Shown here in pieces: positions 1,959-46,425 of a stretch of 64,000 nucleotides of DNA. The DNA is from an uncultured Clostridia bacterium (GTDB lineage: Bacteria; Bacillota; Clostridia; Christensenellales; CAG-314). The position numbers and the translations under genes are program-made. Numbering within the stretch: the stretch's first letter is position 1; each line of letters opens with the position of its first letter. The stretch lies in contig CAMRUG010000003.1 of assembly GCA_947053925.1 (NCBI GenBank), forward strand, positions 64,205 to 128,204. Direction: 5' to 3'. A model generated the notes under the pieces. The model did no database searches. It was given only the letters and a program-made list of their open reading frames with translations, and was not told where the DNA came from.

Positions 1959-2426
1959 TTACTTTTTGCGTTTTTGATCGTGAGTATTACTTTCGGCATC
2001 TAAAATAACGGACGGCAACATAGGTTGCGCTATAACAGGCAAATTGGATTGTTTTTTATTCTTGACGATAAACTTGATTGCTACTACTAACTGCCAAATA
2101 CCTACAGAAATTAAAAACGCAGCAAAACACATTCGCAAAATCTTGTTCGTCGCCATATCCGCACACAGCGCGCCCGCCACTGCCATAGCGACGGCAGGGA
2201 TAATTATCCACCAAATATGCCCTGTTTTGATTAGTTTGTTTTTAGCGTGAAAACCCAGAGCGACACAGCACATAGGTAAAAAACTTATTAAATTTATTGC
2301 TTGTATAGTCTTTTGCTCCAAATCTAAAAAAGACAACAGCGGCGTAAGCAATGTGCCGCCGCCCATTCCCATTCCGCCTATTATTCCCGAAAGAAAGCCG
2401 AACAAAATCAGTAAAAATATTTGCAT
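1959..2426 (-). CDS. TSUP (TauE/SafE) family membrane transporter, half-size
   Basis: MQIFLLILFGFLSGIIGGMGMGGGTLLTPLL is the typical glycine-rich TM1 of the TSUP family. I place the start at ATG 2426 (GGAGAA RBS upstream) rather than at the track start 2510. Confidence 0.65.
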   Translation of the reverse strand: MQIFLLILFGFLSGIIGGMGMGGGTLLTPLLSFLDLEQKTIQAINLISFLPMCCVALGFHAKNKLIKTGHIWWIIIPAVAMAVAGALCADMATNKILRMCFAAFLISVGIWQLVVAIKFIVKNKKQSNLPVIAQPMLPSVILDAESNTHDQKRKK

Positions 2427-2633
2427 ATTATTCTCCTTATCAGTTACGCGAACTCCGCAGCCGAAAACATTTGATTTCGACTTGATTTTTTTAGTAACAA
2501 CCGTCATCAAACATATTTAAAGAGAAACTAAACAGTTTTTTAAGCGGTTAAAATTTTAAACACTTATGCGTAACGGCGAAAAATTCATTACTCATATTTA
2601 ATTAAACAAAACAGCAAACGCAGGGTGGCGTTT

Positions 2634-2999
2634 TCAAAAAAACATCTTTATTCCGCCGGCAATTAAAACTATTGCAAATATAATCTTGATTACGTTGCTT
2701 TTAAGTTTTGAAAGCAATAATGCGCCTACGATGCCGCCCGTAACAACGCCAAGCGTTACCCACAGAGTAGGAGTCCAATCGACAAGACCCTTAAAAATAT
2801 ATACCGCCGCGCTTACGAGTGTAAGAGGCAGAATTACAAGCAATGCCGTAGCCTGAGCGTTTTTTTGATTGAGTTTAATAGCCGACAGCAGTAATGCGAC
2901 GACTATAACGCCTCCTCCGCCGCCTAAAAAGCCGTTTACAAAACCTGCAACAGCCGAAAATATCACTAAAATCCATTTGTTTTTGGCAGATAAATTCAT
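2634..2999 (-). CDS. TSUP (TauE/SafE) family membrane transporter, half-size
   Basis: VAGFVNGFLGGGGGVIVVALLL motif and about 4 TM segments. The likely start is ATG 2999, preceded by GGAG; the track start at 3011 is a TTG. Confidence 0.65.
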   Translation of the reverse strand: MNLSAKNKWILVIFSAVAGFVNGFLGGGGGVIVVALLLSAIKLNQKNAQATALLVILPLTLVSAAVYIFKGLVDWTPTLWVTLGVVTGGIVGALLLSKLKSNVIKIIFAIVLIAGGIKMFF

Positions 3000-3118
3000 T
3001 TTATTCTCCAAATTACGCTTTGTTTGTCTTAATTTGATTGACCTTTAATTTAGTTTGTATTAAAATGTCTTTATATATGTAAAAGTATGCTAATTTTACA
3101 ATGAGGTACTTATAAGTT

Positions 3119-6349: not shown

Positions 6350-6780
6350 TGCGCAACACTCAACCTACTCACCAAATAATCTACGGCATCATAATAACTC
6401 TGTATACCCTTGCCGTAAAAACAAGCCGAGCAAACGTCGCGCAACACGTCCGTATGACGGAAGTTTTCACGCGCATATATATCCGACATATGCACTTCGA
6501 CAACTGGGATATCGATACATTCGATACAATCGCGCAAGGCATAACTGTAATGGCTGTATGCGCCCGCGTTAAAAATTATACCGGCACAGTTTGCTTGCTG
6601 TAAAATATTGACGAGCTTGCCCTCTTCGTTATTCTGCGCGCAAACAACTTCCGCACCTAAACGCTTGGCATATTCGGATACTTTTTTTTGCAAAGCGTCT
6701 AGTGTATCCGTTCCGTAAAACTCCGTTTTACGCTTGCCTAACATATTCATATTTACGCCGTTAAGCAGTAGTATTCTCAT
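6346..6780 (-). CDS. aroQ: type II 3-dehydroquinate dehydratase
   Basis: MRILLLNGVNMNMLGKRKTEFYG ... NAGAYSHYSYALRD ... VEVHMSDIYARENFRH are the hallmark AroQ motifs. Confidence 0.9.
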   Translation of the reverse strand: MRILLLNGVNMNMLGKRKTEFYGTDTLDALQKKVSEYAKRLGAEVVCAQNNEEGKLVNILQQANCAGIIFNAGAYSHYSYALRDCIECIDIPVVEVHMSDIYARENFRHTDVLRDVCSACFYGKGIQSYYDAVDYLVSRLSVAQ

Positions 6781-8774
6781 TTGTTTTTTTCTCCCAAACG
6801 CTTACTTTCAACATATTTTAAAAATCCGTCAAAATCGTCCTGAGTACGGGTATCCGTCCAAAGCGCAAAACTTTTTGCTCCCTGATGATACAGCATTTCC
6901 AATCCGCTTACAACAGGGATATGACGGCGGCGGGCTTTTTCGGCAAGTCCGCTATAACCCTTATAGTCTGCAACAAAAACAAACTCTGCGCTTTCAGGCA
7001 GTCCCATACCCTGTTCAAATTCGCACTCTGGAACAAAACTTAACACTCCGTACGGCTTTTCGAGTTGATTTTCCAGATTGTACTTTTCTGTCAGTTCTTC
7101 TGCGTGCAACGCCGTTCGGTTCAGTACTTTCATCTGTGCGTTATACAACTGCAATTCGATTATGCACCTTTCGGCGGCGCCTCCTGCGCCCACTATCAAT
7201 AATTGTTTGTTGCGTATATCTATTTTTCTGTTGAATAACGATTTTGTTATACCGTAACCGTCAGTTGACTGCGGAAGAATATTTTTACCCACGGTATTGA
7301 CCGAAACGCAATTTGATTCTAACAATTTTGAAACCCTGCGCTTAAAAGGCATTGTGATATTCAGCCCGTCGAATTTGTCTATAATTTCAAGTAATTTACC
7401 GTCGGAAATAACGTCTGACAGCGTAACTGCTTTGTATTCACAGGCAATATTTGAACCTCGCGACAAGTAACGCATAAGCACGGGAGACAAACTCGTACCG
7501 ACATCGCTGCCAATTAAACCGAACTTTAATACATTTAAACCCAGCGACTGATAAAACGCAGGGAATGAAACGTCAAACGGAGCGTCATCTATACTTCCGC
7601 CGCCGCAAGCGATTGACAAAACCGCTTGACACATTGCAATGCGGTGATCGCCGAAACTTGTAAATTCCGGCAAAACGGGGCGTTGACCGTTGGATATAAT
7701 TGTCAGGTCTTTACCGTCAAAAACCGCTTTTTGTCCGCATACCGCCGCAATATGCTCTATGGCGCGGATACGGTTACATTCCTTATTTTGCAATTCGGCA
7801 ACGTTACGGAAAACGTGCGTTCCCTTTATTAACATCGCCATACTTGCAAGCGCAGGAATTTCGTCTATGCCGTCGGCTACGTCCTGCTCATCGGCATACA
7901 GCGGATTTAAAATGCTATTTTCGACAACGATACTGCCGACTTCTTCGCCGAATTGCAAGCGGACGTTTTTTATCTTGATATTCGCTTCGCTCTTTGTCAA
8001 AACGTTTAAAAAGCCTATACGACTGTCGTTTAACAAAACGTTATCTACCGTTACTTCGCTGTTTGTAAGCAATGCCAACGCCACCAAATACGCGGCAGAC
8101 GAAACATCGTTCGGCACGGTAATATCAAACGCTTTTACAGTACTTTTAGTTACCGCCGCCGTTACGCCGTCCGTTTTGATATCTGCGCCGCAATAATCAA
8201 GTAACAATTCCGTATGGTTGCGCGTAGGTATACTTTCGACATACTGCGTTGTGCCGTCGGCAAACAGTCCTGCAATCAAAACCGCAGACTTAACCTGCGC
8301 TGAATTGACTTGGGCATAAAACGTATTGCCTCTGAGTTTTCCGCCGAGGCATTCAAACAAGCCGTCTTCGATTACAGAAATATCCGCACCCATAGTTTTT
8401 AAAGGAGTTACCACTCTGTCCATAGGGCGTCTGACAAGGGAATTATCCCCCGTAAATTTTGCTTTTACGCCAAGTCCTGCCACAAGCCCCGCAAGCAGCC
8501 GAGCCGTCGTTCCGCTGTTTTCGCAATCTAATACCACGTTGCCGTTTGGCTTTTTTATCGGGGTAACGGTTGCCGTCGTACCGTTTAGATTTATTGTCGC
8601 GCCCAACTTACGGAGGCATATGACGGTAGTCAAAACGTCTGAGCAAATTGACAAATTGCGAATGACGCTCTCTCTATCGGCAACAGACGCCAATATGAGC
8701 GCGCGGTGAGAGATTGATTTGTCTCCGCCTATATAGTCTGGGCAAAATTTAAATTGTCCGTTTAAGTTAAGCAT
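6777..8774 (-). CDS. aroA: bifunctional EPSP synthase / shikimate dehydrogenase (AroA-AroE fusion)
   Basis: The N-terminal ~420 aa carry the EPSP synthase motifs KSISHRALILASVA and ENSGTTARLLAGL. The C-terminal ~245 aa carry the shikimate dehydrogenase motifs GLIGSDVGTSLSPVLM, NITMPFK, VNTV and LIVGAGGAA. Confidence 0.85.
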   Translation of the reverse strand: MLNLNGQFKFCPDYIGGDKSISHRALILASVADRESVIRNLSICSDVLTTVICLRKLGATINLNGTTATVTPIKKPNGNVVLDCENSGTTARLLAGLVAGLGVKAKFTGDNSLVRRPMDRVVTPLKTMGADISVIEDGLFECLGGKLRGNTFYAQVNSAQVKSAVLIAGLFADGTTQYVESIPTRNHTELLLDYCGADIKTDGVTAAVTKSTVKAFDITVPNDVSSAAYLVALALLTNSEVTVDNVLLNDSRIGFLNVLTKSEANIKIKNVRLQFGEEVGSIVVENSILNPLYADEQDVADGIDEIPALASMAMLIKGTHVFRNVAELQNKECNRIRAIEHIAAVCGQKAVFDGKDLTIISNGQRPVLPEFTSFGDHRIAMCQAVLSIACGGGSIDDAPFDVSFPAFYQSLGLNVLKFGLIGSDVGTSLSPVLMRYLSRGSNIACEYKAVTLSDVISDGKLLEIIDKFDGLNITMPFKRRVSKLLESNCVSVNTVGKNILPQSTDGYGITKSLFNRKIDIRNKQLLIVGAGGAAERCIIELQLYNAQMKVLNRTALHAEELTEKYNLENQLEKPYGVLSFVPECEFEQGMGLPESAEFVFVADYKGYSGLAEKARRRHIPVVSGLEMLYHQGAKSFALWTDTRTQDDFDGFLKYVESKRLGEKNK

Positions 8775-33310: not shown

Positions 33311-34927
33311 TTACTTGTCTTCCTGTACATCGCTATCGCTTTGACGGTTAGACGCAAGCGAAGAATCATCGGCAACACTGCCTATAATTACGCTTTCGCA
33401 AACAAGTACCGGCTTTTCTTTTTTACGTTGGATAATTTTTATAACGAATACCGAGCCCACAAACAGCAATATTGCCGTTGCAAGCGAAATTACAGCACAC
33501 CACGCAATGCCGAGATTTGCCGAAGCGCCTGCAACCAAATATGACAAAAAAGTTATTCCTGCTATCAATCCTGCATAAGGCATTTGCGTTTTAACGTGAT
33601 TAACGTGATTACAGTTTGCTCCCGTTGACGACAATATAGTAGTATCGGATATAGGCGAAATATGGTCTCCGAATACTGCTCCGCCAAGCGTTGCAGATAC
33701 GGTTACAAGAGTTATTGCATTTACGTCTGTGCCTAGGATTGTAGTAGCGATAGGTATAAGCACGGTAAACGTACCCCACGATGTACCTGTAGCGAACGCT
33801 ATACCGCACGCAAGCAAAAAGAATACGGCAGGGAAAAACGCACCGAGAGATACTCCCGTCAAAGTGTTTTGCACAAATCCGCGCGCATCGAGATAACCGC
33901 CCTTAGAGCCCATAATAGCCGAAAGCGTCCACGCAAACGTTAAAATCAGTATTGCCGAAGCCATTGTTTTAAAGCCCTCGGCAACGCTGGACATAATATC
34001 TTTAAACGAAACGGCGCGAGCGATAAGATAGTAGACAACAACAATAACCAAAGCGATTGTAGAGCCTATTGCAAGACTCATACCTGCATCACAATTTGCA
34101 AATGCTTCGACAATGTTAGCGCCTTTAAAAATACCGCCTGTGTACAGCATACCAAAAATACAGCAAACTATAAGTACCGCAACGGGAATAATAAGATTGC
34201 GAACTTTGCCGTTTGACGACGGTATTATTACCGTTTCCTGTCCGTCAAAATGTTTACCTGCGTCAACGTCGCCCGTTTGCTCTGCAATTTTATCATCTTT
34301 ACGCATTTTTCCGAAAGAAATACCTAACGCGCAAAAAACAAAAACCATTACGATTGTTAGTAAAGCGTAGATATTAAACGGTATCGTTAAAACGAAAATG
34401 GTCATATCGTTGCCTTGCAATTGTCCCATAACTGCCGCCGCCCAAGATGAAATCGGCGCAATTATGCATACGGGCGCGGCGGTACTGTCTATTATCCAAG
34501 CAAGTTTGGAGTGAGAAACCTTGAACTTATCCGTTACGGGTCTCATAACCGAACCGACTGTAAGACAATTGAAATAGTCGTCTACAAAGACCAAACAACC
34601 CAGCAACGCCGTTGCGCACAAAGCACCGCGTTGTGATTTGATTTTGCGCTGTGCCCACGCGCCGTATGCCGCTGCTCCGCCCGACTTTTGCATCAGAATA
34701 ACGAATATTCCCAAGACAACTAAAAACACTAAAATTGACGCATTTTCGCCCAATTTTTCACTCATTACCGTAAACATTGTTTCTAGAGCGTACAGAGGAT
34801 TGCCGCTTGCGTAAAACATAGCTCCAACAAAAATTCCTGCAAATAACGACAAATACACTTGCCTTGTTACAAGTGCCAAAACTATTGCCACAATTGCAGG
34901 TACAAATGCCCAAAATGTTCCTATCAT
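33311..34927 (-). CDS. NhaC-family Na+/H+ antiporter-type transporter (putative lysine transporter by riboswitch context)
   Basis: Polytopic membrane protein with an NhaC-like N-terminus, MIGTFWAFVPAIVAIVLALVTRQVYLSLFAGIFVG. Start set at ATG 34927 (GGAAGG RBS); the track start 34954 lies inside the leader terminator U-tract. Confidence 0.8.
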   Translation of the reverse strand: MIGTFWAFVPAIVAIVLALVTRQVYLSLFAGIFVGAMFYASGNPLYALETMFTVMSEKLGENASILVFLVVLGIFVILMQKSGGAAAYGAWAQRKIKSQRGALCATALLGCLVFVDDYFNCLTVGSVMRPVTDKFKVSHSKLAWIIDSTAAPVCIIAPISSWAAAVMGQLQGNDMTIFVLTIPFNIYALLTIVMVFVFCALGISFGKMRKDDKIAEQTGDVDAGKHFDGQETVIIPSSNGKVRNLIIPVAVLIVCCIFGMLYTGGIFKGANIVEAFANCDAGMSLAIGSTIALVIVVVYYLIARAVSFKDIMSSVAEGFKTMASAILILTFAWTLSAIMGSKGGYLDARGFVQNTLTGVSLGAFFPAVFFLLACGIAFATGTSWGTFTVLIPIATTILGTDVNAITLVTVSATLGGAVFGDHISPISDTTILSSTGANCNHVNHVKTQMPYAGLIAGITFLSYLVAGASANLGIAWCAVISLATAILLFVGSVFVIKIIQRKKEKPVLVCESVIIGSVADDSSLASNRQSDSDVQEDK

Positions 34928-34955
34928 TTTAACCGCCTTCCAACAAAAACTCAAT

Positions 34956-35165
34956 AAAAAAATCGCGAACTATTAAACGTCGCGACAAAAGCGGTAACAT
35001 CTAATAGCGCAACACACTCAAAGTGTGACAGTCGCAAAGATATTCTCCTTGCGCCCAGCAAGTCTGCCGTTAGGGACAGCAAACCGCTTCGGCAGTTTTT
35101 CCTTTACCGTTAAGACCCTTTAACCCTTTTATCTTAACTTATCTTAAAAACCGCGCCTCTATCTT
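34956..35165 (-). promoter_or_regulatory. lysine riboswitch (L-box) with intrinsic terminator
   Basis: The minus strand reads GATAGAGGCGCGG...CTGCCGAAGCGG...TGCTGGGCGCAAGGAG...GACTGTCACAC. These blocks match the conserved blocks of the B. subtilis lysC L-box (GATAGAGGTGCG / GCCGAAG / TGCTGGCCGTGC / GGCTGTCA). It ends in a TCGCGA...TCGCGA hairpin plus U7. Confidence 0.8.
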
Positions 35166-35328
35166 GATTTATTTATTTGTAAATAAATTATATATGAACG
35201 GCATAATTTGTGTCAAATAATTTAATATGATTTTTAAAATTATATCAGTTTGCCATTATATTGAACAAGTTACATAAAAAAATAAAACTCTCAAACCGAG
35301 AGTTTTACCGTAAACGCATTGAACAACG

Positions 35329-37028: not shown

Positions 37029-37894
37029 TTTTGTAATTCGCCCAGTATATGTTTTAAAATAAGTTCGCTCATATCCACTCCCGTGCAGTCAAATGTCGAC
37101 TTAAAATGCACGTTAGAATTAACTTCGCAAATATACGGCTTACCGTTGTCGCCCAAAAGTACGTCAACGCCGGCGAAATCCAGCCCCAAAATTTCACACG
37201 CGCGCAAAGCGATATCTTGCTGTTCCCGTGTGGGAGTAATCTGCTTCATTTTAGCGCCGTTAGTAATATTAGAGCGGAAATCGTTATCGTTATAGCGCAA
37301 TAAAGACGCCGCAACTTTGCCGCCCACAACGTTTATTCGGACGTCCTTGCCGCAACTTGAGGCGATAAATTGCTGAAAAAGACAATCTTTGAAATTTATC
37401 TTTTCGATAATACTTTGCGCCTGCTCGAAAGTAGTTGCCAGATATACTTGCTGACCGAAAGAGCCGTATGCTTCCTTTATTACTAGCGGTAAACCTAAAA
37501 TATCTATTGCTTGACGCAAAAAATCCAATTTGTTGTAGCCTACTCCTTCAAAAGTTTTGGGCGCTATAACCGTCTTGGGAATATTTACTTTATTTATTAA
37601 AGCGAGCGCGGTCAGTATTTTGTTGTCGCACAATTCTATTGCTTTTGCCGAATTGTAAACGGGGATATGAAGTTTTTCCATCCTTTGCGCCAAATAAATA
37701 TCCTTATCCCAAAAGATAACAAACTGCGGCAAAACAAACGAAGAAAAACTATCATCGATAGAACATAACAGAGAATCGGTAGTTTTTACTTCTAACTTGA
37801 TATTTAATTTATTGGCGGCTTTTTCAAAAAAGACATACAATTCTTTGAATTTGTTTGAATTGATAAAACTGTTTACCACTAACCAACCTAACAT
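37025..37894 (-). CDS. ATP-grasp ligase (RimK-like), paralogue
   Basis: LPLVIKEAYGSFGQQVY, DVRINVVGGKV and FAGVDVLLGDNGKPYICEVNSN. It overlaps the downstream paralogue by 4 nt. Confidence 0.7.
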   Translation of the reverse strand: MLGWLVVNSFINSNKFKELYVFFEKAANKLNIKLEVKTTDSLLCSIDDSFSSFVLPQFVIFWDKDIYLAQRMEKLHIPVYNSAKAIELCDNKILTALALINKVNIPKTVIAPKTFEGVGYNKLDFLRQAIDILGLPLVIKEAYGSFGQQVYLATTFEQAQSIIEKINFKDCLFQQFIASSCGKDVRINVVGGKVAASLLRYNDNDFRSNITNGAKMKQITPTREQQDIALRACEILGLDFAGVDVLLGDNGKPYICEVNSNVHFKSTFDCTGVDMSELILKHILGELQK

Positions 37895-38185: not shown

Positions 38186-38605
38186 AATTTGACTAGCTAT
38201 ATGATTACACCATTCTCAAATCTGGGCTCTTTCGGTTTTTTACGATGTTCATTTAAGCACATAGGTAAGATACTGGAAATTGGTCAACATTATAAGCATA
38301 ATATGTTTTGAATTCTACAATCAATTACACCGTTCTCAAACTTACCGCTACCCGTCGTACCTATTACTAATGTCTTATGTCTATATAGAACTACACAATT
38401 CTCAAACACGCGTCCATCGTGTCAAACTCTGCGAATCGTTTTAGACCTATATAGAATTACACCATTCTCAAACGATAGAAGGTAGCAAGATTGTGTATAT
38501 ATAGTTTTAGACCTATATGAAATTACACCATTCTCAAACTACTGCCGATTATGTACCCGACAAGTTTAAATTTTAAACATAATTCGAATTATATCATTCT
38601 CTAAC
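38186..38605 (-). CRISPR. distal (trailer-side) CRISPR block with decaying repeats
   Basis: Six recognisable repeats at 38186-38221, 38305-38341, 38372-38407, 38438-38473, 38504-38539 (identical to consensus) and 38570-38605 (degenerate). Four spacers are exactly 30 nt. One 83-nt interval possibly hides a further decayed repeat. Confidence 0.75.
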
Positions 38606-38612
38606 TTAATTC

Positions 38613-38825
38613 TTAATATATCGCAAAGGGATTTTCTTCATATTTCAAAACTTCTTCCCACGTTAACTTATGCTCAACACAATACTCATAAACGGCATTC
38701 TCATCGTTGTTGAATTTTTCGTACAAAATTTGATTACCCATTACTTGATACAGAGGTATTACAACCGTAGATATTTCTTTTTTGTATCGGTTAAACCAAT
38801 AATTGTTATCGTATTCTCCCATCAT
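38613..38825 (-). CDS. 70-aa acidic hypothetical protein embedded between the two CRISPR blocks
   Basis: MMGEYDNNYWFNRYKKEISTVVIPLYQVMGNQILYEKFNNDENAVYEYCVEHKLTWEEVLKYEENPFAIY. An AAGGAG RBS lies 7 nt upstream of the ATG. It has the same orientation as the cas operon and pre-crRNA, with 12 D/E against 6 K/R. Confidence 0.5.
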   Translation of the reverse strand: MMGEYDNNYWFNRYKKEISTVVIPLYQVMGNQILYEKFNNDENAVYEYCVEHKLTWEEVLKYEENPFAIY

Positions 38826-38884
38826 AAAAGCTCCTTCATATTATTATATATTTCTTCATATTTTGCGTGTGTTCTAAGCAAATA

Positions 38885-40107
38885 ATTTAAAATCTATATG
38901 GAATTACAGCATTCTCAAACACAACGGCAGCTGCACAGCCTGCACCCAAGTTTTAGACCTATATGAAATTACACCATTCTCAAACCCTTTCCATTGCGCA
39001 GTAAAATCGTCTAATGTTTTAGACCTATATGAAATTACACCATTCTCAAACTGCTGTACTTGTCGATGAGCAGTTCTCCGCGTTTTAGACCTATATGAAA
39101 TTACACCATTCTCAAACGCTTATTGACAGAAAGCGCACAAAGATATTGTTTTAGACCTATATGAAATTACACCATTCTCAAACGGAAGAATAGGCAATAT
39201 TCGGTATCCGGCAGTTTTAGACCTATATGAAATTACACCATTCTCAAACACTACTGATACCAGGATAAAACAGTCTTGCGTTTTAGACCTATATGAAATT
39301 ACACCATTCTCAAACTATCAACAAACACAAGCCTATAAATAATACGTTTTAGACCTATATGAAATTACACCATTCTCAAACAAGATTAGTACCAGGATTA
39401 ATGTTATCTTTGTTTTAGACCTATATGAAATTACACCATTCTCAAACCTTTGAATAACTTGTCCGTTGTATGTCAGTGTTTTAGACCTATATGAAATTAC
39501 ACCATTCTCAAACCTTGTTTGTCTTGATTTGCGAAGAATTCTAGTTTTAGACCTATATGAAATTACACCATTCTCAAACAGTTCATTTGGCGGTTGATGT
39601 CGTTTTGTTGTTTTAGACCTATATGAAATTACACCATTCTCAAACTTGCGTTTGCGGAGTATGGCTTTGCGTTTAGTTTTAGACCTATATGAAATTACAC
39701 CATTCTCAAACTTGATGAATGCGGTGGATATGCCGAAAATTGTTTTAGACCTATATGAAATTACACCATTCTCAAACGAGTGGGTATTGGTAAACCCCGA
39801 TATTGTGGTTTTAGACCTATATGAAATTACACCATTCTCAAACCCGCGCCCTGTCTTCTTTGCTTGGCGGTAAGTTTTAGACCTATATGAAATTACACCA
39901 TTCTCAAACTCGCCAGTATATCTTACGCCTTTTAATTTCGTTTTAGACCTATATGAAATTACACCATTCTCAAACCATAGGTTTGAATTTGGGCGAAAAA
40001 TTGAAGTTTTAGACCTATATGAAATTACACCATTCTCAAACACGAGAGCCGATTATATCCACACAACAGGCGTTTTAGACCTATATGAAATTACACCATT
40101 CTCAAAC
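38885..40107 (-). CRISPR. main type II-A CRISPR array (19 repeats, 18 spacers)
   Basis: 18 identical 36-nt repeats (plus strand gttttagacctatatgaaattacaccattctcaaac; transcribed sense GTTTGAGAATGGTGTAATTTCATATAGGTCTAAAAC), first at 40072-40107 and last at 38950-38985. There are 17 spacers of 30 nt and one of 29 nt. The terminal repeat at 38885-38920 is degenerate (6 mismatches, mostly at its 3' end in the transcribed sense). Confidence 0.97.
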
Positions 40108-40215
40108 CTCAAATTTGAAAATTTTTACGATTACCGGTCGCATTAATTCAATATAGGCATTTATAATTTACTAAATTTATCTTAAAAAGTCAAACAATCT
40201 AACGTGTTCATTACC
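40108..40215 (-). promoter_or_regulatory. CRISPR leader with candidate promoter
   Basis: AT-rich 108 nt between the csn2 stop and the first repeat. The minus strand has TTGACT (40188-40193), a 17-nt spacer and TAAATT (40165-40170). Confidence 0.5.
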
Positions 40216-40902
40216 TTAGTCGGTTTGCATAACAGGCAAATACTCGCACCTGTCTTCGTCATAAACGATTATTGCTTCGTCTTTGATTTTTGTTTTGAAA
40301 CTGCTGTCAATACACAAAATACTTATGCCGTTTATCTGACAATGCTTAAACAGCAACGACAATTGCTCGCTGTTTAAATAGCTTCTTAGACTTATACAAA
40401 CGATAACTTTTATTGACGTAAGGCGTGAAAGCAACGAAACGTAATCGCACAACTTTTCAAACAAATTATCGTATTCCTCTAAAAATGCTACGCTTATTGC
40501 TTTTAATAATATTGTAATATCAGCATCGCGTACTGTTAACGGATAATCGATATCTAATGTCAAATCGTTAAAATACATTGTTAACGACGTCAATAGTTCG
40601 TTAGTTGCAACGATATGATTTTCGTCAAATGCTAATTTTTTTAAGTTATCCTGTAATATTGCGGTCGCTTTTTTATCGTTTAAGTTCATATTGTGATAAT
40701 CAGCCAAATATACCGCATATTTGGCAAAATCAATATCCTGGCCTCCGCTTATAAGTCTCCACTTGCCCTGCTGCCCTTTGACTTGCATACACATATCGCC
40801 TGTAAAAGAAGCAAACATTGCCGAATGTTCGCAAATCAATGACCATGCGTTGCTAATATCAAAGTCTATTTCGTTTTCTAAATCGTAGTTTATTAACTTC
40901 AT
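40216..40902 (-). CDS. csn2: Csn2 (type II-A adaptation protein)
   Basis: 228-aa ORF immediately after cas2 and before the leader. Its size and position match short Csn2, and its layout resembles S. pyogenes Csn2 by eye. Confidence 0.8.
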   Translation of the reverse strand: MKLINYDLENEIDFDISNAWSLICEHSAMFASFTGDMCMQVKGQQGKWRLISGGQDIDFAKYAVYLADYHNMNLNDKKATAILQDNLKKLAFDENHIVATNELLTSLTMYFNDLTLDIDYPLTVRDADITILLKAISVAFLEEYDNLFEKLCDYVSLLSRLTSIKVIVCISLRSYLNSEQLSLLFKHCQINGISILCIDSSFKTKIKDEAIIVYDEDRCEYLPVMQTD

Positions 40903-41219
40903 ACCAATATGTATTTGTCTACAGAATCTATTACCTGACTTTTATTTTCACCAACCAAATATACGATATCTGCAAATTGTTTTTCGGTAATTACCATAAT
41001 CTGCACCGTTCCCTTTGCAGGTACTTGGTTTGCCAAATGCCGTTTAACTAGTTCTACCGTAGAACCGTTAAGCGCCAATTTAAAATAAACTGACTTTTGC
41101 ATCATTATAAAACCTTCTTTTATCAAAAAGGTTCTAAATTGCCTATATGCGGTTCTATCAGCCGCCGTTTCCGTAGGCAAATCGAAAAATACAATTATTC
41201 TCATAAATCTAAAACTCAT
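40899..41219 (-). CDS. cas2: Cas2
   Basis: MSFRFMRIIVFFDLPTETAADRTAYRQFRTFLIKEGFIMMQKSVYFKL closely parallels S. pyogenes Cas2 (MSYRYMRMILMFDMPT...). I chose the start at 41219 rather than the track start 41240. Confidence 0.9.
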   Translation of the reverse strand: MSFRFMRIIVFFDLPTETAADRTAYRQFRTFLIKEGFIMMQKSVYFKLALNGSTVELVKRHLANQVPAKGTVQIMVITEKQFADIVYLVGENKSQVIDSVDKYILV

Positions 41220-42084
41220 AACCGCAAAATTGCAACGCATTTACATCGCCGTTTTCTATTGCATAAATAACACGTTTAACATACAACCCTATGGCATTGT
41301 TTAAAGAATACTTCTTATTATCAAATAGTACTTCCTTGTTTATCAACTGCTGTAAAATATGCTTGTGCTCTTTATTAAAACTTTTAACATCCATTTGCAA
41401 AACCGTTCTGTCTACAAACGGACGAAAAGGCTCCATAAGGTCGCAACTCAAATTGAAGTGATTGTATTCGTTGTTGTGATTTATTCCGAAATTTGCAGAA
41501 TAGCCGTTAACTGCAACTTCGCGGTTAAATGCCGATAACAGTATACTGTAACCGTAATCTAACGCGGCATTGGTATCTGTTGCTATTTGCCTTGTAAAAT
41601 CGTTACCGAAAACAGCATTAAAGTAAACTTTCGCCGCGTGTCCTTCTCTGTTGGTAATGTCGCCTTGACGGACATCCGCCATATAATTAAACAACATATC
41701 TGCTTGAGTTTGATGACCGTACTTTTTAAGTACTAACATTTGCTGATAAATTTTATGCCGAACAATTTCCGTCCATATAATTTGTTTATTATATTCTGCC
41801 CAAGCAATCTGCTTTCGCAAACAGCCGCTGGTATCGTAACGTAACGAAGTGGGAACAAGTTCAAAAAACGGATTGTGCTTTTCATCGCAAAATATAACTT
41901 TAATTTTACGACGCGTAAGTTCACACAATAAACTGGCCGTAACCGCTACGGCAACACTTTCTACTATCAACACAGATATTTCCGAAAGATGAATTTTGAC
42001 AGTTTCTTCTCCGCGGCAAACCAAATAATCCAAACGGTGTTCAAGCTTGCATCTGTTTGTTACCGTTACCACGCGCCAACTCAA
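41209..42084 (-). CDS. cas1: Cas1 (type II)
   Basis: 291 aa with the type II Cas1 layout. It overlaps the cas9 stop by 4 nt, and cas2 follows. Confidence 0.93.
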   Translation of the reverse strand: MSWRVVTVTNRCKLEHRLDYLVCRGEETVKIHLSEISVLIVESVAVAVTASLLCELTRRKIKVIFCDEKHNPFFELVPTSLRYDTSGCLRKQIAWAEYNKQIIWTEIVRHKIYQQMLVLKKYGHQTQADMLFNYMADVRQGDITNREGHAAKVYFNAVFGNDFTRQIATDTNAALDYGYSILLSAFNREVAVNGYSANFGINHNNEYNHFNLSCDLMEPFRPFVDRTVLQMDVKSFNKEHKHILQQLINKEVLFDNKKYSLNNAIGLYVKRVIYAIENGDVNALQFCGYEF

Positions 42085-45000
42085 CTGTTATTCTCCTTGT
42101 CAAATTGACTCAGCGGTATTTTTTGTTCAAATATGCCTGTTACGGACCTGTGAACGATACTGATATCGTCCAATGATTCAAATACTGAAGAAGTCAATAT
42201 ATTTCCGCAAGACTTTCCTTCTTCTACCAACGATAAATTACTAGTTGTAGCATTGCACTGCAACGCTTTAGCTATCTCTGCTAGCACAACACACTGTTTT
42301 GCACGACATAAATTGGCAAATTTTTGTCTCAAATTTTCAGTCGACAATTTATGTACAAACGATTGAAGACTTGCCGCACCGCTATATTTGGAAGATGACA
42401 GTTTTTCCATAAATACGTCATATAAGATTTTATTCTGTTCCAACGTAATATCGTCATAATCAGTAACGTTATATGTTTGTTTTTGTACGCTTGCTTTATT
42501 GTATTTTTCTACAACGTTTACCACTTTTTTCAGATACCGTTCGGTTTCTTCATCACAGGCATTTTGCTGCGCAATGCGCCAAATAATTCTGTTACCCGTC
42601 ATTGCAGAAAGAGACAATAATGTATTTCCGAACTCAAACATTGTTTGAACCTTTATTCTAGGTATAAGAATTCTAGCATTTTGTAGCCCGCATTTTTCGC
42701 AATAATCAATTCGGCTTTTGTTATCCAATAATTTGTTCGAATCTTTTGCAGTTACGCCCAACAATTTATAGTAACATTTTTCATTTTGTTCCTTTTTAGT
42801 CTGCTTAACTTGGGTATACTTGACCAGCATATAGTACGCACGTGTTTCGCTGATATAACCGCCGTACTTTGCTGTATCGGACATACATTTGTATTTGCGG
42901 TTTGTGCTGTTCTCTCCCTTTAAAGGAACTAAATTAGCATTGTCGGCGTTTTTCTTTTGCAGTGTGGCTTCGAATAACTGTCCTTTTACCACTTTGCTTT
43001 CGCGAGTGAACAGCACTGCATTACTGCGCATTGTTTTTTCGACTTGCGCCATTGTTCCGTCTTCTCCGGCAATCCATGCTACTACAGATTTATTTTTGAC
43101 ATCGTGTTCAAACAGTTTTGCCGGCGAAACGAGTTTCTCTGTAGGATGGTTTTTCATCCAAAATCTTGCGTTATGCTCATAGCGGACATTATAAACGTTA
43201 CCAACCACTATGTTCAAATAAGCGTCCTTTGCGTGATGCAAGTCGTTAAGCTCACGGCACTTTACAAAACGGGATACGCGCTGTTCTCCCATTTGTTTCG
43301 GCATAGCACGGAAGTCGCTGATATTACCTGCTTTTGACCACACAATTTCGCTCTCGGGAAATACACCTTTAAGTAATTCTATTACTTCCTTAGTTGTTTG
43401 ACGCGTTTCGACAAGTTGCCTGTTAATAAAATCGGCAAGTTCATCATCGGTTAACGGTGTGTTACGGGTTAAACGTCTGTATTTCTCCTCACTCATCAAA
43501 CCTTGCTTCTTCAAGACTAGCCATTTGCTCTCCATTTTTTTGCGTACGCTTTCTTCAATGGGATATGTATCCGTTTTAACTGCATTGTGTGTGCGGTATG
43601 TTAACACAAGATTACTATGAATACTGTCGTCTTTTACTTTACTGCGGGGATATATGTGGTCTTTGTCATACAAATGCAAATTATTGTAATCAATAACATC
43701 TCCCGTATAAATATCAATGCCATTTTGCATAAAGTATAAAAACAACTTGGTATTTTGAAGACTTTCCGGCTTGAGTTCACAAAATTGTTTATAAACATTT
43801 TCGTTGAACATATCATCGCGTTGCTCTTTTAGTTTGTCCAGAGCAGCAGACAACATTTGGTAACGCGACGCATTACGTTTGCGTTCTTCTGACTTATCTT
43901 TTTTGCTATTTGTATCGCGTGCAACTTCTACAAATATTTTAGACGGCGCGCGTCCTAGTATATCGGTCAATTCCTTTACTATACATAGAGTCTGCCATAT
44001 TTGCTTTTTAACGGCAGGAGAACAGTATAATGAGTCGACAACATCATACGAAATCCCGCTAGATATATTATCACGAAGTTGATTGAATCCGTCTTTAAAA
44101 CCGTATACTTCGTTATTCCATATTTCCATAAAGTTATACTGACTGTTCCGCATAGCATCTATTATCGACAAAGTATGCAATTCTCCCGTATCGGGATCTG
44201 TTCCGATACGTTTTGTAAGCATTTCTTTAGAATAACGTCCCCAACCTTTAAGAGACAAGCCCTTGATTATACTGATTTGCTGCTCGGTTAAATAGTCAAA
44301 TTCCTTTTTTAAACGCTTTACTAGATTGTTTTTTTTCGGACCAGCTATGGTAGCATATAGAATTATTTTTTCAATATCTTCTCTGTGTTCTTCAACTCCC
44401 CTTACAGAGCCGTCAAATATTTTGACAAACTGATAGTAGGTACGTCGATGAACAGTTGCACCATCGTCAAAACCATCTATTTCAATTTTGTCATTATCTT
44501 CATATACGTTCTGTAATTTTAACCACTGTTTTAAAATTTTTGCAGTAAGTTTGCTTTCTCCATTTGTAGCATAATACTCCGACAATTTCAATTTTAAATC
44601 GACGCTTAAACGCGTGCCGTTTATTCTGATACAGTTAACAACATTGAGAAAAGCAAATTCCTCGTATAAAAGACTACATTTAGGCAAAACCTTTGCGCCG
44701 TCTACATACGGACATTTATTTGTCATACGCTGAACGAAATTATTCTCTGTGGCAAATAAATCAATTTTTTGTTCGTAATTCCAAGGAAGAATTTTGCCGC
44801 TTTCAGAACGTACTATCCAGTATTTGCCGCTATGATTATTTGTAGGACCAACATAATACGGCATTTTAAACGTCAAAAGCGATTTAATTTTGTCGTACGT
44901 TCTAATACCGCTTTTATCAGTTTCATTGATAAAAGCATAACGCGGATATTGGATAATGTTTTTTAAAATCGTTTCCAACTCTGCCAAATTAAGTTGATAC

Positions 45001-46286
45001 GGCAAAGTGGAATTACGTTTACTAACCTGCTTTGGCATAAACGTACCGTCAGCCATATCCGACAAAATACGTTGCACAGTTTCGTCGTTTTGTGCTTGCT
45101 CATACGAAGTTAATATTGATTTGACGTATTTTACGAAATCTTCATAGCTACGACTTTTAGCTGTTTCCAACAACTGCTTATTGCCGTCAACCTTCTTGCC
45201 GAAATTAACTTTACCGCTATAAGCAGTATAGTTAGTTTCTTTGTCGTTCTTTTTAAACATTAAGTCGTAAGTTTCTTGAGGAAAATACTTTTTTAGCACT
45301 CTTTTTAAATCCGCAAGATCTTTACTATGTTTTTTGTACCTTTCTACCATTCCTTCCGACAAAAAACTATAATTGCCCAAAATTGTTTTTAATTGTGCAT
45401 AATCATAAAGTAATTTAGCGTTTTCGATAAGTATATAGTCATCTTGCAACAACTCTCGATATTCCGATTCTTTTGCTTCCCATTCGCAATCGAAAGTAAC
45501 CGACAGCGAAGTTTCAGTGTCGGGAAACAATGCTTTGATCTTAACGGAATTACCCGCTATCAGTTTTAACACTGCTTCTAATCGGCTGTTTTTAGGTGCA
45601 TCAAAACAATCCTTATAACGCTGTGCGCGTTCGGATTTAGTACCTTTTTCGACTAAACAATTTTGGAATTTTTTAATTATTTCCTTGGTCAAATTTAATT
45701 GCTCAACTTTTTCACTACTTGACAAATAACAGGCAATTGAATTCAAAGGCGCCTCAATATTATCAATAACGCTTACGCTATCGCCTTCTTGCAAAAAGTG
45801 CCCGCGGTATTTGATAATATGATGCAACGCCAGATATACCAATCTCGGATCAGGATCGGTCTCGGTCATCATTGCCAACCGTAAATGGTAAATCGTTTTG
45901 TATTTTTTGTAAAATTCTTTATCGGTATAGTCTTTATCGTTAAACAACGAAAACTTAGTCTTTTCACGTTTGTCGCCGTCATATAAATTGCTGTCTGAAA
46001 GACGTGCGAAAAAATTGCCGTCAATTTGATTGATAACGGGCGCAAAAATTTCTTGCAGCAATTCTATACGCCATTTGCGTCGTTCTAATCTTCTGCGAGA
46101 TTCTCGGCTCAAACGTCTGTTACTTGCAGATTGAGCCGAATCAAACAAACGTACGCCCCACAAATTTTTATTATTTGCGCGTAAAAGTTTATAATTAGTA
46201 TCGGTAACCGCCCAGCCGACTGAATCGGTGCCTATATCCAAGCCCAAATAATAATTTTCGTAATTTCTTTTGTTTTTTTGACTCAT
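42081..46286 (-). CDS. cas9: Cas9 (type II-A, 1401 aa)
   Basis: RuvC-I YYLGLDIGTDSVGWAV; an arginine-rich bridge helix (NRRLSRESRRRLERRKWR); HNH YDKDHIYPRSKVKDDSIHSNLVLTYRTHNAVK. The operon continues with cas1-cas2-csn2. Confidence 0.97.
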   Translation of the reverse strand: MSQKNKRNYENYYLGLDIGTDSVGWAVTDTNYKLLRANNKNLWGVRLFDSAQSASNRRLSRESRRRLERRKWRIELLQEIFAPVINQIDGNFFARLSDSNLYDGDKREKTKFSLFNDKDYTDKEFYKKYKTIYHLRLAMMTETDPDPRLVYLALHHIIKYRGHFLQEGDSVSVIDNIEAPLNSIACYLSSSEKVEQLNLTKEIIKKFQNCLVEKGTKSERAQRYKDCFDAPKNSRLEAVLKLIAGNSVKIKALFPDTETSLSVTFDCEWEAKESEYRELLQDDYILIENAKLLYDYAQLKTILGNYSFLSEGMVERYKKHSKDLADLKRVLKKYFPQETYDLMFKKNDKETNYTAYSGKVNFGKKVDGNKQLLETAKSRSYEDFVKYVKSILTSYEQAQNDETVQRILSDMADGTFMPKQVSKRNSTLPYQLNLAELETILKNIIQYPRYAFINETDKSGIRTYDKIKSLLTFKMPYYVGPTNNHSGKYWIVRSESGKILPWNYEQKIDLFATENNFVQRMTNKCPYVDGAKVLPKCSLLYEEFAFLNVVNCIRINGTRLSVDLKLKLSEYYATNGESKLTAKILKQWLKLQNVYEDNDKIEIDGFDDGATVHRRTYYQFVKIFDGSVRGVEEHREDIEKIILYATIAGPKKNNLVKRLKKEFDYLTEQQISIIKGLSLKGWGRYSKEMLTKRIGTDPDTGELHTLSIIDAMRNSQYNFMEIWNNEVYGFKDGFNQLRDNISSGISYDVVDSLYCSPAVKKQIWQTLCIVKELTDILGRAPSKIFVEVARDTNSKKDKSEERKRNASRYQMLSAALDKLKEQRDDMFNENVYKQFCELKPESLQNTKLFLYFMQNGIDIYTGDVIDYNNLHLYDKDHIYPRSKVKDDSIHSNLVLTYRTHNAVKTDTYPIEESVRKKMESKWLVLKKQGLMSEEKYRRLTRNTPLTDDELADFINRQLVETRQTTKEVIELLKGVFPESEIVWSKAGNISDFRAMPKQMGEQRVSRFVKCRELNDLHHAKDAYLNIVVGNVYNVRYEHNARFWMKNHPTEKLVSPAKLFEHDVKNKSVVAWIAGEDGTMAQVEKTMRSNAVLFTRESKVVKGQLFEATLQKKNADNANLVPLKGENSTNRKYKCMSDTAKYGGYISETRAYYMLVKYTQVKQTKKEQNEKCYYKLLGVTAKDSNKLLDNKSRIDYCEKCGLQNARILIPRIKVQTMFEFGNTLLSLSAMTGNRIIWRIAQQNACDEETERYLKKVVNVVEKYNKASVQKQTYNVTDYDDITLEQNKILYDVFMEKLSSSKYSGAASLQSFVHKLSTENLRQKFANLCRAKQCVVLAEIAKALQCNATTSNLSLVEEGKSCGNILTSSVFESLDDISIVHRSVTGIFEQKIPLSQFDKENNS

Positions 46287-46326
46287 AACTATTGACTCCT
46301 TTGTATAAAACTGCTATCATATATAC

Positions 46327-46425
46327 ATCTATATGAATTACACCAGTTCAAATAAAGATTTATTCTAACCGTCGCTTTTTGCGACACACTGTTATCAGTG
46401 ATACCTGCTTCGGCAGGTTTTTTTT
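46327..46425 (+). ncRNA. predicted tracrRNA (divergent from cas9)
   Basis: Promoter TTGACT (46292-46297), 17-nt spacer, TATCAT (46315-46320). The anti-repeat CTATATGAATTACACCAGTTCAAA (46329-46352) pairs with the 5' 27 nt of the transcribed repeat as 7 + 10 + 5 bp with two bulges. Then come hairpins GTCGC-TTTTT-GCGAC and CCTGC-TTCG-GCAGG followed by U8. Confidence 0.75.

Follow-up and report, generated by a model that had tools for sequence, protein, structure and literature searches.

IS elements insert in CRISPR arrays, and in CreTA loci degenerate repeats flank a pseudo-spacer that partly matches the promoter of the toxin. Acquisition at ectopic positions inside arrays is reported for the type II-A system of Streptococcus thermophilus (PMC5338259, PMC7999890), and Tn7-like elements that target CRISPR repeats have been reported as well (PMC11837452). 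The PhiAP1.1 prophage integrates in the type II-A repeats of S. pyogenes (Varble et al., bioRxiv 10.1101/2020.10.09.333658); this is a whole prophage with its integrase, and its attP shares 8 bp with the repeat (bioRxiv 10.1101/2020.10.09.333658). As for genes that act in pairs, small ORFs directly after phage toxin genes have been proposed to be immunity genes, with 20% of MuF toxins having metallopeptidase domains (PMC5576092), and CDI/Rhs systems contain orphan modules composed of a toxin fragment and an immunity gene (PMC3150448). Arrays are thus known to be interrupted by IS, Tn7-like elements and whole prophages, and to store 30-nt phage fragments. The case presented here stands in between: a gene-sized fragment, very probably from a phage, sits exactly in a spacer slot and contains an intact, translatable, sense-oriented gene.

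The array lies in a window of 64,000 nt (the whole stretch of DNA that was analyzed) from an uncultured Clostridia bacterium, downstream of a set of cas genes; a putative tracrRNA is encoded on the opposite strand.

46320 to 46425, plus strand: putative tracrRNA, read from the sequence, with approximate ends; anti-repeat at about 46325-46352, terminator hairpin and T-run at about 46403-46425
42081 to 46286, minus strand: cas9 (1401 aa), from the ORF list; Pfam Cas9 domains on the gene of identical length in conspecific loci
41209 to 42084, minus strand: cas1 (291 aa), an ORF; PF01867 on its orthologue
40899 to 41240, minus strand: cas2 (PF09827, E 1.4e-15)
40216 to 40902, minus strand: csn2 (PF09711, E 2.5e-16)
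40108 to 40215, minus strand: CRISPR leader, with a promoter-like TTGACT-17-TAAATT at 40193-40165 that is a consensus match only

The genes cas9, cas1, cas2, and csn2 form one operon directly upstream of the array and on the same strand, and the subtype is II-A because csn2 is present, in agreement with the original prediction. The consensus repeat (36 nt on the minus strand) is GTTTGAGAATGGTGTAATTTCATATAGGTCTAAAAC, and its predicted duplex with the tracrRNA anti-repeat reaches -28.5 kcal/mol, versus -8.7 ± 2.7 for shuffled repeats; the putative tracrRNA has no Rfam match at the gathering threshold. Since the anti-repeat, on the plus strand, complements the minus-strand repeat, the array is transcribed on the minus strand, which upholds the earlier view that the small ORF found inside it is co-oriented with the pre-crRNA. 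The array itself is built as follows.

38950 to 40107, minus strand: leader-proximal block, 18 perfect 36-nt repeats and 17 intervening 30-nt spacers
38921 to 38949, minus strand: 18th spacer, 29 nt, between the perfect block and R_up
38885 to 38920, minus strand: R_up, upstream flanking degenerate repeat with 6 mismatches; promoter-like TTGAGA-16-TAGATT inside
38606 to 38884, minus strand: insert of 279 nt (278 nt in the other allele), probably phage-derived, filling a spacer slot
38822 to 38884, minus strand: remnant, apparently the 3' end of a phage HExxH-protein gene, encoding YLLRTHAKYEEIYNNMKELL and a stop; its TGA overlaps the ATG of the ORF (ATGA)
38831 to 38836, minus strand: AAGGAG Shine-Dalgarno sequence, 7 nt before the ATG and inside the remnant reading frame
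38613 to 38825, minus strand: 70-aa ORF (stop included), member of an unannotated family of small phage proteins
38570 to 38605, minus strand: R_dn, downstream flanking degenerate repeat with 10 mismatches
38306 to 38569, minus strand: distal block, four 30-nt spacers alternating with four repeats (0, 2, 8, and 10 mismatches)
38186 to 38305, minus strand: ancestral trailer, an 84-nt stretch and the last repeat-like unit (38221-38186), common to all strains

Every coordinate of the split array, as first reported with its 18 perfect repeats, degenerate repeat, 279-nt insert and resuming 30-nt units, checks out. Like a spacer, the insert consists of what is very probably foreign DNA and has full repeats on both sides. 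It departs from one in length, with 279 nt instead of 30 ± 1, the other 71 distinct spacers of the arrays examined being 29-31 nt long. Its GC content is 29.7%, versus 38.4% for the window.

We infer that the insert is, very probably, a fragment of phage DNA in a spacer slot, because it retains the remnant of one phage gene, the ATGA overlap and the phage synteny of both genes. Nucleotides 1-63 of the insert translate into YLLRTHAKYEEIYNNMKELL and a stop codon, and the first 60 of them correspond to the last 20 residues of a large phage protein. This remnant aligns with the C termini of phage proteins of ~420 aa (for example that of L012, which ends in YLPRTFAKYEEVYNGLADKI), and nothing else in the window matches L012, the closest of these proteins, as strongly (55% identity over 20 aa, E 0.034). 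With its stop/start overlap, the junction is of the type found in phages, so that the content of the insert comes down to the last 20 codons of the large gene, the complete coupled small gene, and 7 bases. Homology to phages begins at the first nucleotide of the insert, immediately after a full 36-nt repeat, and the insert ends 7 nt past the stop codon of the small gene, where another full 36-nt repeat begins, which leaves at most 7 nt unaccounted for at the 3' end. At the upstream junction, the TTTAAA of the repeat end could represent microhomology with the TTTAAA-GAG-TATTTG found in phages, a suggestive likeness. The donor phage was not found in IMG/VR and JGI metagenomes (by protein pattern), INPHARED (tblastn and blastn) or PLSDB, and the insert has no DNA match in the phage collection. 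R_dn shows no similarity to the DNA that follows the small gene in phages, where the sequences are terminators.

An origin as an IS or MITE, which had been offered as an alternative, was rejected because the insert has no terminal inverted repeats, target-site duplication, or multiple copies (none elsewhere in the window) and no transposase. It does resemble the transposable elements found in arrays in being a strain-variable interruption, but these have a transposase, terminal inverted repeats and second copies that are missing here. The "remnant of a mobile insertion" that the original prediction listed among its options was essentially right, the mobile DNA being very probably that of a phage.

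The 70-aa ORF is as acidic as reported (12 D/E, 6 K/R; pI 4.5), with a product of 8.7 kDa. While a word-indexed search matched only the ORF itself, exhaustive phmmer retrieved 23 homologous clusters (best E 4e-18), which is why the ORF is not a chance reading frame. Against a profile of the family from which it was left out, it scores 90.2 bits, level with true phage copies, and all near-invariant residues of the family are kept. AlphaFold2 models the protein as four helices with good confidence (pLDDT 88.9, pTM 0.75), and the structure prediction that had been proposed thus gave a confident model but no known fold or match to an anti-CRISPR protein in the PDB: nothing significant was found in Pfam, PHROGs, PADLOC, NCBIfam, or the PDB by sequence and profile, and Foldseek found no fold match in the PDB and BFVD. 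The AAGGAG sequence does lie 7 nt before the ATG as claimed, and could well serve as ribosome-binding site, but it is not free-standing, since it is embedded in the remnant of the upstream phage gene, as is usual for translationally coupled genes. In the second allele (L001/L002), it reads AAGGAA.

In five phage or prophage contigs, a homologue of the small gene lies directly downstream of a gene for a large protein with an HEYGH motif.

L010: phage or prophage context; large and small genes overlap, terminase genes after
L011: prophage in a Christensenellaceae MAG; genes overlap, terminase genes after
L012/L013: closest homologue of the 70-aa ORF (59%); genes overlap in L012, terminase genes after
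L014: no terminase identified downstream, where there is only a weak tail-completion/neck match
L033: IMG/VR contig; module with terminase genes after

The large proteins are 401-474 aa long and, in the four compared, 29-43% identical to one another; HEYGH is invariant in the alignment of these four and present in the fifth as well. The two genes overlap or abut in all five contexts (L010, L011, L012, L014, and L033) and in the remnant of the window. The small gene is preceded by the HExxH gene and followed by a terminator and then terS, with terminase genes after the module in four of the five contexts, which places it where the early operon gives way to the packaging genes. No significant family match (none in Pfam or NCBIfam) and no MuF delivery domain were detected for the large protein, the C-terminal half of which, in L012, weakly matches PHROG 4728 "head morphogenesis" (E 1.4e-5). 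On this one motif and one weak match, the protein may be zinc-peptidase-like. The module can thus be defined apart from the array, as an unannotated pair consisting of a ~420-aa HExxH protein and a ~65-aa four-helix partner.

The small component also recurs as an orphan, which makes the module a candidate effector/antidote pair. In L003 and L004, the small gene is intact and only 79 aa from the C terminus of the large protein survive in front of it; other homologues are solitary, in variable islands. These arrangements are reminiscent of the orphan modules of polymorphic toxins, in which a small gene is kept beside the 3' remnant of a large one, as in the window and in L003/L004, and a small acidic ORF overlaps a larger upstream phage gene with an enzyme-like motif. 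In contrast to such modules, the large phage protein has no detected MuF or other delivery domain, the roles of toxin and antidote are putative here, and a site inside a CRISPR array is not described in the literature searched. No CRISPR array lies near the other family members, the array-borne homologue having been seen only in this species. A helix-turn-helix gene neighbors the family only in L005-L007 and L016, where it is convergent and not operonic.

The comparison of orthologous loci that had been suggested was informative. Two conspecific strains, L020 and L021, have contiguous arrays with no trace of the insert, although their Csn2 is identical and their flanks are 98.6-99.0% identical; the 70-aa gene is thus missing from equally close strains with the same cas genes. 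Two loci were left out of this scoring of presence and absence, since L040 ends early in the array and L041 starts inside distal spacer D2. Only two lineages that carry the ORF are known, both from one species. The distal block is identical in the other one (L001/L002), while L020 and L021, which have no insert, also lack its first three spacers (38408-38569); all strains share its fourth spacer and its repeats with 8 and 10 mismatches. The insert lies under at least 18 later spacers, of which the two array lineages have only 2 in common. Between the two ORF-carrying alleles there are 8 differences, all of them in the remnant and codons 1-3 and none in the 186-nt conserved core. This clustering could reflect a single gene-conversion tract rather than selection on the core. 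The two alleles hardly diverge in this region (~1 difference in 700 nt nearby), so that no conclusion can be drawn from the ORF being unchanged.

The two flanking repeats are the most aberrant in that part of the array. Four of their mutated positions coincide (12, 20, 30, and 36), with the same base at three of them (20, 30, and 36). The original prediction had claimed that the two repeats share derived bases, and this is its one weak point, as the hypergeometric P is 0.04, or 0.09 without position 20, C20 occurs in older repeats too, and T at position 36 is found in the terminal repeat of another species' array. Nor do their mismatches necessarily imply great age, because older repeats downstream are perfect or nearly so. 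The predicted duplex with the tracrRNA anti-repeat is retained by R_up (-22.4 kcal/mol) and lost by R_dn (-8.4 kcal/mol), the consensus value being -28.5 kcal/mol. In R_dn, TGATATAAT forms a perfect extended -10, and TTAAGA stands 17 nt upstream of it (38616-38588); in a promoter scan of this AT-rich region, the number of sites was no higher than in shuffled sequence. A CreTA-like module, which also has degenerate repeats beside a small, putatively expressed element in a CRISPR locus, was considered and rejected: there is no matching pseudo-spacer, the longest self-match of any window spacer being 14 nt, elsewhere in the window, with none near the ORF or the cas promoter.

The explanation that we place first, tentatively, is that a phage gene was captured and is transcribed as part of the pre-crRNA, and that its product may act as an orphan partner of, or antidote to, the phage HExxH protein. 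The fragment would have entered as an oversized "spacer," either by Cas1-Cas2-type integration or by another repeat-guided recombination, which would explain why both junctions fall at repeat boundaries. Such an entry is plausible without being clearly probable. It would resemble ordinary II-A acquisition by Cas1-Cas2-Csn2-Cas9 in that phage DNA stands between full repeats and is co-linear with the array, older units lying downstream of it and newer ones towards the leader; it would differ in that the insert is 279 nt long, far beyond the 29-31-nt spacers of these arrays, and contains a complete translatable gene. In addition, entry at the leader end predicts perfect flanking repeats, yet both are degenerate. 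Once in place, the ORF would be part of the pre-crRNA transcript, which would start either in the leader or at the promoter-like hexamers in R_up. With tracrRNA and RNase III still cutting R_up and no longer R_dn, it would find itself on a long 5' extension of the next crRNA precursor, to be translated from the inherited Shine-Dalgarno sequence. The 70-aa protein itself would be a binding partner of the phage HExxH protein, with an immunity-, inhibitor-, or chaperone-like role, and an orphan copy in the host could neutralize that phage protein. That the ORF benefits the host is conceivable, if somewhat doubtful; otherwise it would be a young passenger.

The most complete version of this scenario, in which a phage gene captured as an oversized spacer is co-expressed from the pre-crRNA as an antidote to the phage HExxH effector, is rather unlikely as a whole. 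It would make the array an integron-like site of gene capture that adds an innate anti-phage protein to an adaptive memory, and the mutations in R_up and R_dn would serve to stabilize and express the cassette, by abolishing the downstream pairing and by creating promoter-like hexamers. Should the adaptation integrase have placed the insert, the locus would be evidence from nature that DNA as long as a gene can be taken up by Cas1-Cas2, which would bear on the link between casposons and CRISPR and on the limits of the spacer "ruler." Should the host use the 70-aa protein, it would be an example of a protein-coding defense gene riding on a pre-crRNA.

Nearly as likely as the captured and expressed gene is a young neutral passenger. 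The fragment would have the same phage origin, and the ORF would have no function, being intact for lack of time to decay and prone to loss by deletion between repeats, as would already have happened in other strains; the locus would then be a curiosity of array microevolution. The passenger is consistent with the variability between strains, including the equally close conspecifics that lack the insert, with the scarcity of differences within the species around the insert, which leaves selection undetectable, with the lack of a homologue in any other array, and with the state of the next, older repeats, which have few or no mismatches. Weighing against it, by a rough estimate only a few percent of random 279-nt pieces of phage DNA would include a complete gene together with its ribosome-binding site, and half of these would have it in sense orientation. 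Moreover, the insert persisted under at least 18 later spacers, in two array lineages, the differences between alleles avoid the conserved core, and intact orphan copies beside truncated partner genes recur in other taxa.

It is very unlikely that the insert is all that is left of a prophage that integrated site-specifically in a CRISPR repeat, with the degenerate repeats as attL/attR hybrids. As with PhiAP1.1, the documented case of integration into II-A repeats (bioRxiv 10.1101/2020.10.09.333658), phage DNA here interrupts a II-A array at its repeats, where it can disturb crRNA transcription or processing and reshuffle spacers, and hybrid att sites would explain an aberrant flanking pair amid perfect neighbors. 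In contrast to PhiAP1.1, the insert amounts to 279 nt that correspond to an internal part of a phage genome and not to an integrase-bearing end; it has no integrase, and no att core was detected. To trim a prophage to this piece, two deletions would have had to stop precisely at the att sites; both flanking units are full-length repeats rather than the halves of a split one; no module-bearing phage locus has a repeat-like attP; and the same derived base in both flanking repeats at positions 20, 30, and 36 is not predicted for attL and attR.

The original prediction leaned towards an anti-CRISPR, Cas-modulating, or Cas9/adaptation accessory protein. That the 70-aa ORF damps the Cas9 of its own host, allowing it for example to tolerate self-targeting or prophages, is hard to credit in light of the HExxH-coupled phage setting, the PAM-consistent spacers and the absence of the gene from close conspecifics with the same cas genes. 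The protein is like AcrIIA proteins in being small, acidic, phage-encoded, and devoid of a detectable domain. It is unlike them in having no aca-type regulator adjoining, its phage gene standing between that of a large HExxH protein, to which it is coupled, and a terminator, and in showing no sequence or fold likeness to solved structures, among which are many AcrIIA. The ORF-carrying L002 does hold a spacer with a perfect self-match (30/30), in a chromosomal ATP-grasp gene just downstream of the array. Spacers were compared with IMG/VR in six scans, of which four gave no match. Four leader-proximal spacers of L002 match viral contigs over 29-30 of 30 nt, and the protospacers are followed by GTCAAC, GGAAAC, AACGAC, and GGTGAC, that is, NNNRAC. 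These PAM-consistent matches indicate that Cas9-dependent adaptation stayed functional above the insert. The self-target, however, is followed by ATTTAT and thus has no PAM, so no inhibitor is needed to tolerate it, and the self-targeting spacer was dropped as a pointer to an anti-CRISPR once the PAM had been inferred.

Last, the notion that there is no real gene, the 279 nt being repeat-spacer units that have decayed, or random DNA of the trailer, in which an ORF arose by chance, is virtually untenable: although promoter- and RBS-like strings are common in this AT-rich region and the promoter scan did no better than on shuffled sequence, it is refuted by the homology to 23 protein clusters, and runs against the confident structure model, the conserved phage synteny and the recognizable remnant of the upstream gene.

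The type II-A array is transcribed from the minus strand, in the same direction as the cas genes, since the anti-repeat of a candidate tracrRNA is complementary to the repeat as read on that strand (predicted duplex -28.5 kcal/mol, against -8.7 +/- 2.7 for shuffled repeats). The locus is laid out as follows.

About 46320-46425, plus strand: tracrRNA candidate, just upstream of cas9, its 3' end a strong hairpin and a T-run
42081-46286: cas9
41209-42084: cas1
40899-41240: cas2
40216-40902: csn2
40108-40215: leader, 108 nt, after which the array begins
Leader-proximal block: 18 perfect repeats and 17 spacers of 30 nt, then one 29-nt spacer
38920-38885: R_up, a repeat with 6 mismatches
38884-38606: insert, 279 nt without repeats
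38613-38825, minus strand: ORF of 70 aa within the insert
38605-38570: R_dn, a repeat with 10 mismatches
Distal block: four 30-nt spacers, separated by repeats with 0, 2, 8 and 10 mismatches
Array end: an 84-nt stretch, then a final repeat-like unit

All these repeats, spacers and insert coordinates agree with the split array of the original prediction, whose observation as a whole is confirmed. The 84-nt stretch (38222-38305), between the last two repeat-like units, is no multiple of the 66-nt unit and is conserved in all strains, insert-free ones included, with two substitutions. As for the mechanical ORFs of the array, one of 236 aa (39333-40043, minus strand) is mere read-through of repeats, without support, and one of 71 aa (38670-38885, plus strand), antisense to the real gene, has no match in PADLOC, the one library scanned.

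The 70-aa ORF matches nothing in Pfam, PHROGs, PADLOC, NCBIfam or PDB, and a word-indexed homologue search returned only the ORF itself. Exhaustive phmmer, however, recovered 23 homologous clusters at E <= 1e-3, the best with 59% identity (E 4e-18). These share a C-terminal signature, IPLYxVMGNxI..xF......VYxYCxE..K.WEEVL......Y, of which the window copy keeps every near-invariant residue, and against a profile built without it the ORF scores 90.2 bits (left-out genuine phage copies, 80-88 bits). Clusters, signature and profile score together bear it out as a real gene. Structure prediction, proposed along with the ORF, gave a confident AlphaFold2 model of four helices (27-sequence alignment, pLDDT 88.9, pTM 0.75), but no significant fold match in PDB or BFVD.

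The small gene lies directly 3' of a gene for a 401-474-aa protein, often overlapping it, in five independent phage or prophage contexts, with terminase genes downstream in four of them.

L010, phage contig: [423 aa]-[small]-terS-terL; large gene 6733-8004
L011, prophage of a Christensenellaceae MAG: Holliday-junction resolvase, then [426 aa]-[small]-135 aa-terS-terL-portal; large gene 1852-3132
L012/L013: closest homologue of the ORF, then a terS-like gene; large gene of L012 100-1320
L014: [474 aa]-[small], no terminase identified downstream, where the genes show at most a weak tail-completion/neck match; large gene 251-1675
L033, IMG/VR contig: [401 aa]-[small]-terS-terL-portal; large gene 1531-2736

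The large proteins of L010, L011, L012 and L014 are mutually homologous (29-43% identity), with an invariant HEYGH motif, also present in that of L033. None matches any curated family, and the C-terminal half of one weakly resembles the C-terminal part of a 'head morphogenesis' PHROG. The five proteins, of about 400-470 aa, make up a phage family without annotation, with a conserved N-terminal motif, GN.GLPFGL.KKYGI; in all five loci the gene of a small four-helix protein follows. In several native contexts, phage contigs L010 and L012/L013 among them, the next element after the small gene is an intrinsic terminator, so that the small gene closes an operon. Other members of the small family are solitary; their higher-GC genomes carry them in variable islands, with integrases and restriction genes nearby, and none of these members lies inside a CRISPR array. 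In L003 and L004, intact orphan small genes sit beside truncated large genes. L003, from a high-GC genome, has its orphan gene (8001-8213) and a 79-aa large-gene remnant (7712-7948) between direct repeats (7562-7727 and 8523-8688; 166 nt, 88% identical), an arrangement suggestive of a cassette that was duplicated or is mobile.

Translated in frame from nucleotide 1, the insert gives YLLRTHAKYEEIYNNMKELL and a stop. This peptide lines up with the C-terminal ends of the large phage proteins (...YLPRTFAKYEEVYNGLADKI in L012, ...LPKTYAKYEEIYKEYVK in L011, each before its stop). With the large protein of L012, the closest phage protein, as tblastn query, no part of the 64-kb window matches more strongly than this stretch, and its TGA shares bases with the small ORF's ATG, the same overlap that the phages show. 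The insert thus comprises 20 codons of the large gene, the complete small gene and 7 nt. Its GC content is 29.7% (window, 38.4%); it lacks terminal inverted repeats, occurs once in the window and matches no DNA of the phage collection. Judged by this homology, the insert is a fragment of phage DNA. Of the roles first suggested, the remnant of a mobile insertion was right, and a Cas accessory factor was not borne out. The AAGGAG ribosome-binding site noted at the outset is present, but as a coupled Shine-Dalgarno sequence within the last codons of the large gene, because the start of the insert encodes the large-gene C-terminus and stop and start overlap.

The orthologous loci proposed for comparison show the ORF in two lineages and contiguous arrays in others. 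A Csn2 identical to a 99% relative of the window's own lies on 22 contigs, and exact sub-sequences of the window's allele occur in two more metagenome assemblies (L029, L030). The second ORF-carrying lineage, L001 and L002+L023, mutually indistinguishable over 5 kb, shares with the window the flanking repeats, the insert (here 278 nt) and, without any difference, the distal block; its leader-proximal spacers are almost entirely different from the window's. The spacer directly upstream of R_up also differs (window 38921-38949, 29 nt, TTGGGTGC...; L001 9874-9903, 30 nt, TATTTCTG...), and the two preceding it are common to both lineages, which implies that the proximal block underwent deletions or an ectopic event at its trailer end. 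The ORF-lacking conspecifics L020 and L021 match the window at 98.6-99.0% identity in the flanks. Their perfect repeats are followed without a break by the 8-mismatch repeat and the shared trailer, and nothing of the insert is present. Arrays of this species are mosaics of deletion and/or recombination, because three mid-array spacers (CGTAAAG..., TATCCGC..., TCTGTCC...) are common to L002 (68-367) and L020 (7456-7653) and both sides of them differ. A different species, L032 (GCA_023663205.1; Csn2 56% identical), has exactly the same 36-nt repeat in a contiguous 10-repeat array (7614-8243), the terminal repeat ending in …TAAAAT; one source labels its Csn2 'Corallococcus sp.', a suspected binning or labelling error.

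A self-targeting spacer is a classic pointer to an anti-CRISPR. The ORF-carrying L002 (GCA_965647135.1) has one (38-67): it matches the strain's own RimK-like ATP-grasp gene at 30 of 30 nt (window 37700-37729), about 0.5 kb past the end of the array and 0.8 kb from its last regular repeat. In the same strain (L001/L023), four distinct spacers near the leader match, at 29-30 of 30 nt, two IMG/VR contigs of about 49% GC (host window, about 38%): L038 (1773-1802 and 7181-7210) and L039 (three protospacers). The 3' flanks of the four phage protospacers, GTCAACT, GGAAACT, AACGACA and GGTGACA, provisionally suggest NNNRAC as the PAM of this Cas9. The flank of the self-target, ATTTATT, lacks it, so this target is probably harmless. 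Above the insert, moreover, that ORF-carrying strain has spacers that were PAM-selected from contemporary phages, and at the phage loci no aca gene adjoins the small gene, which is coupled to the large enzyme-like protein. Since the self-target is PAM-less, PAM-selected spacers stand above the insert and the synteny is that of phages, the probability that the ORF is an anti-CRISPR, the original leaning, is low.

Phage homology starts at nucleotide 1 of the insert, immediately 3' of a full 36-nt repeat, and the insert ends 7 nt past the stop codon, immediately before another; no split spacer or repeat is left. Two such junctions would seldom arise if a fragment entered a 66-nt unit at random (by our estimate, in the order of 1e-3), which points to repeat-guided entry, by oversized, possibly ectopic Cas1-Cas2 integration or by recombination at repeats. 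Support is lacking for a double crossover by way of two ordinary spacers, no NNNRAC following the would-be first protospacer. Integration of a PhiAP1.1-like prophage, since decayed, would account for the aberrant flanking repeats, but it requires two deletions with endpoints exactly at the att sites, and the module-bearing phage loci showed no repeat-like attP. The 3' end of R_up (…GATTTTAAAT) could contain a microhomology junction with phage sequence (…TTTAAAGAGTATTTG…).

R_up retains pairing with the tracrRNA (-22.4 kcal/mol), while R_dn (-8.4 kcal/mol, the level of shuffled controls) is the only repeat in the array to have lost it; much older trailer repeats still pair at -22 to -25 kcal/mol. 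Because R_up pairs and R_dn does not, cleavage of a read-through transcript would occur in R_up and then not until the perfect repeat 38539-38504, so that the next crRNA precursor would carry the ORF on its 5' extension. In R_up, two mutations give rise to TTGAGA-16-TAGATT; in R_dn, one or two convert TGGTGTAAT into TGATATAAT, a perfect extended -10 that has TTAAGA 17 nt upstream. Both are consensus matches only, and the promoter scan as a whole gave no excess of sites over shuffled sequence. The R_dn site could drive the distal block by itself, like type II-C repeat promoters.

The two ORF-carrying alleles differ at 8 positions, all within 38817-38852, a 36-nt stretch of remnant, Shine-Dalgarno and start region. 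They include a remnant frameshift in the L001/L002 allele and codons 1-3, outside the conserved 186-nt core, which has none (P about 1.5e-4 under random scatter). A single conversion tract explains this clustering as simply as selection on the core, for which the trailer-side background, one difference in about 700 nt, is too low a test. Gene conversion, with a related phage as a possible donor, may have patched this stretch, or selection may have acted on translation initiation. Indirect evidence bears on selection as well: a random fragment would capture a complete gene and its Shine-Dalgarno with an a priori chance we put at a few percent, and in L003 and L004 intact orphan genes again accompany truncated partner genes. 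Most likely, a phage gene fragment was captured into a spacer slot and is transcribed along with the array, its product being the partner of a phage HExxH protein. That the host just carries the ORF and that it uses it are about equally likely, each short of probable, with use if anything slightly the less likely.

Among known systems, ordinary and ectopic II-A spacer acquisition shares the position of the insert but not its length. Prophage integration into II-A repeats (Varble et al.) and IS and Tn7-like insertions in arrays are also among the nearest phenomena; for the small protein, these are the toxin-fragment/immunity 'orphan' modules of polymorphic toxin systems (PMC3150448) and the small immunity ORFs downstream of phage MuF toxins (PMC5576092). 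Since each membership fails on at least one defining feature, where testable, we class the insert as a new form of foreign DNA inserted in a CRISPR array rather than as a member of any of these families. Elsewhere in the window, a lysine riboswitch (Rfam RF00168, 91.6 bits; 34997-35169, minus strand) lies upstream of a gene for an Na+/H+-antiporter-family membrane protein (33311-34954).
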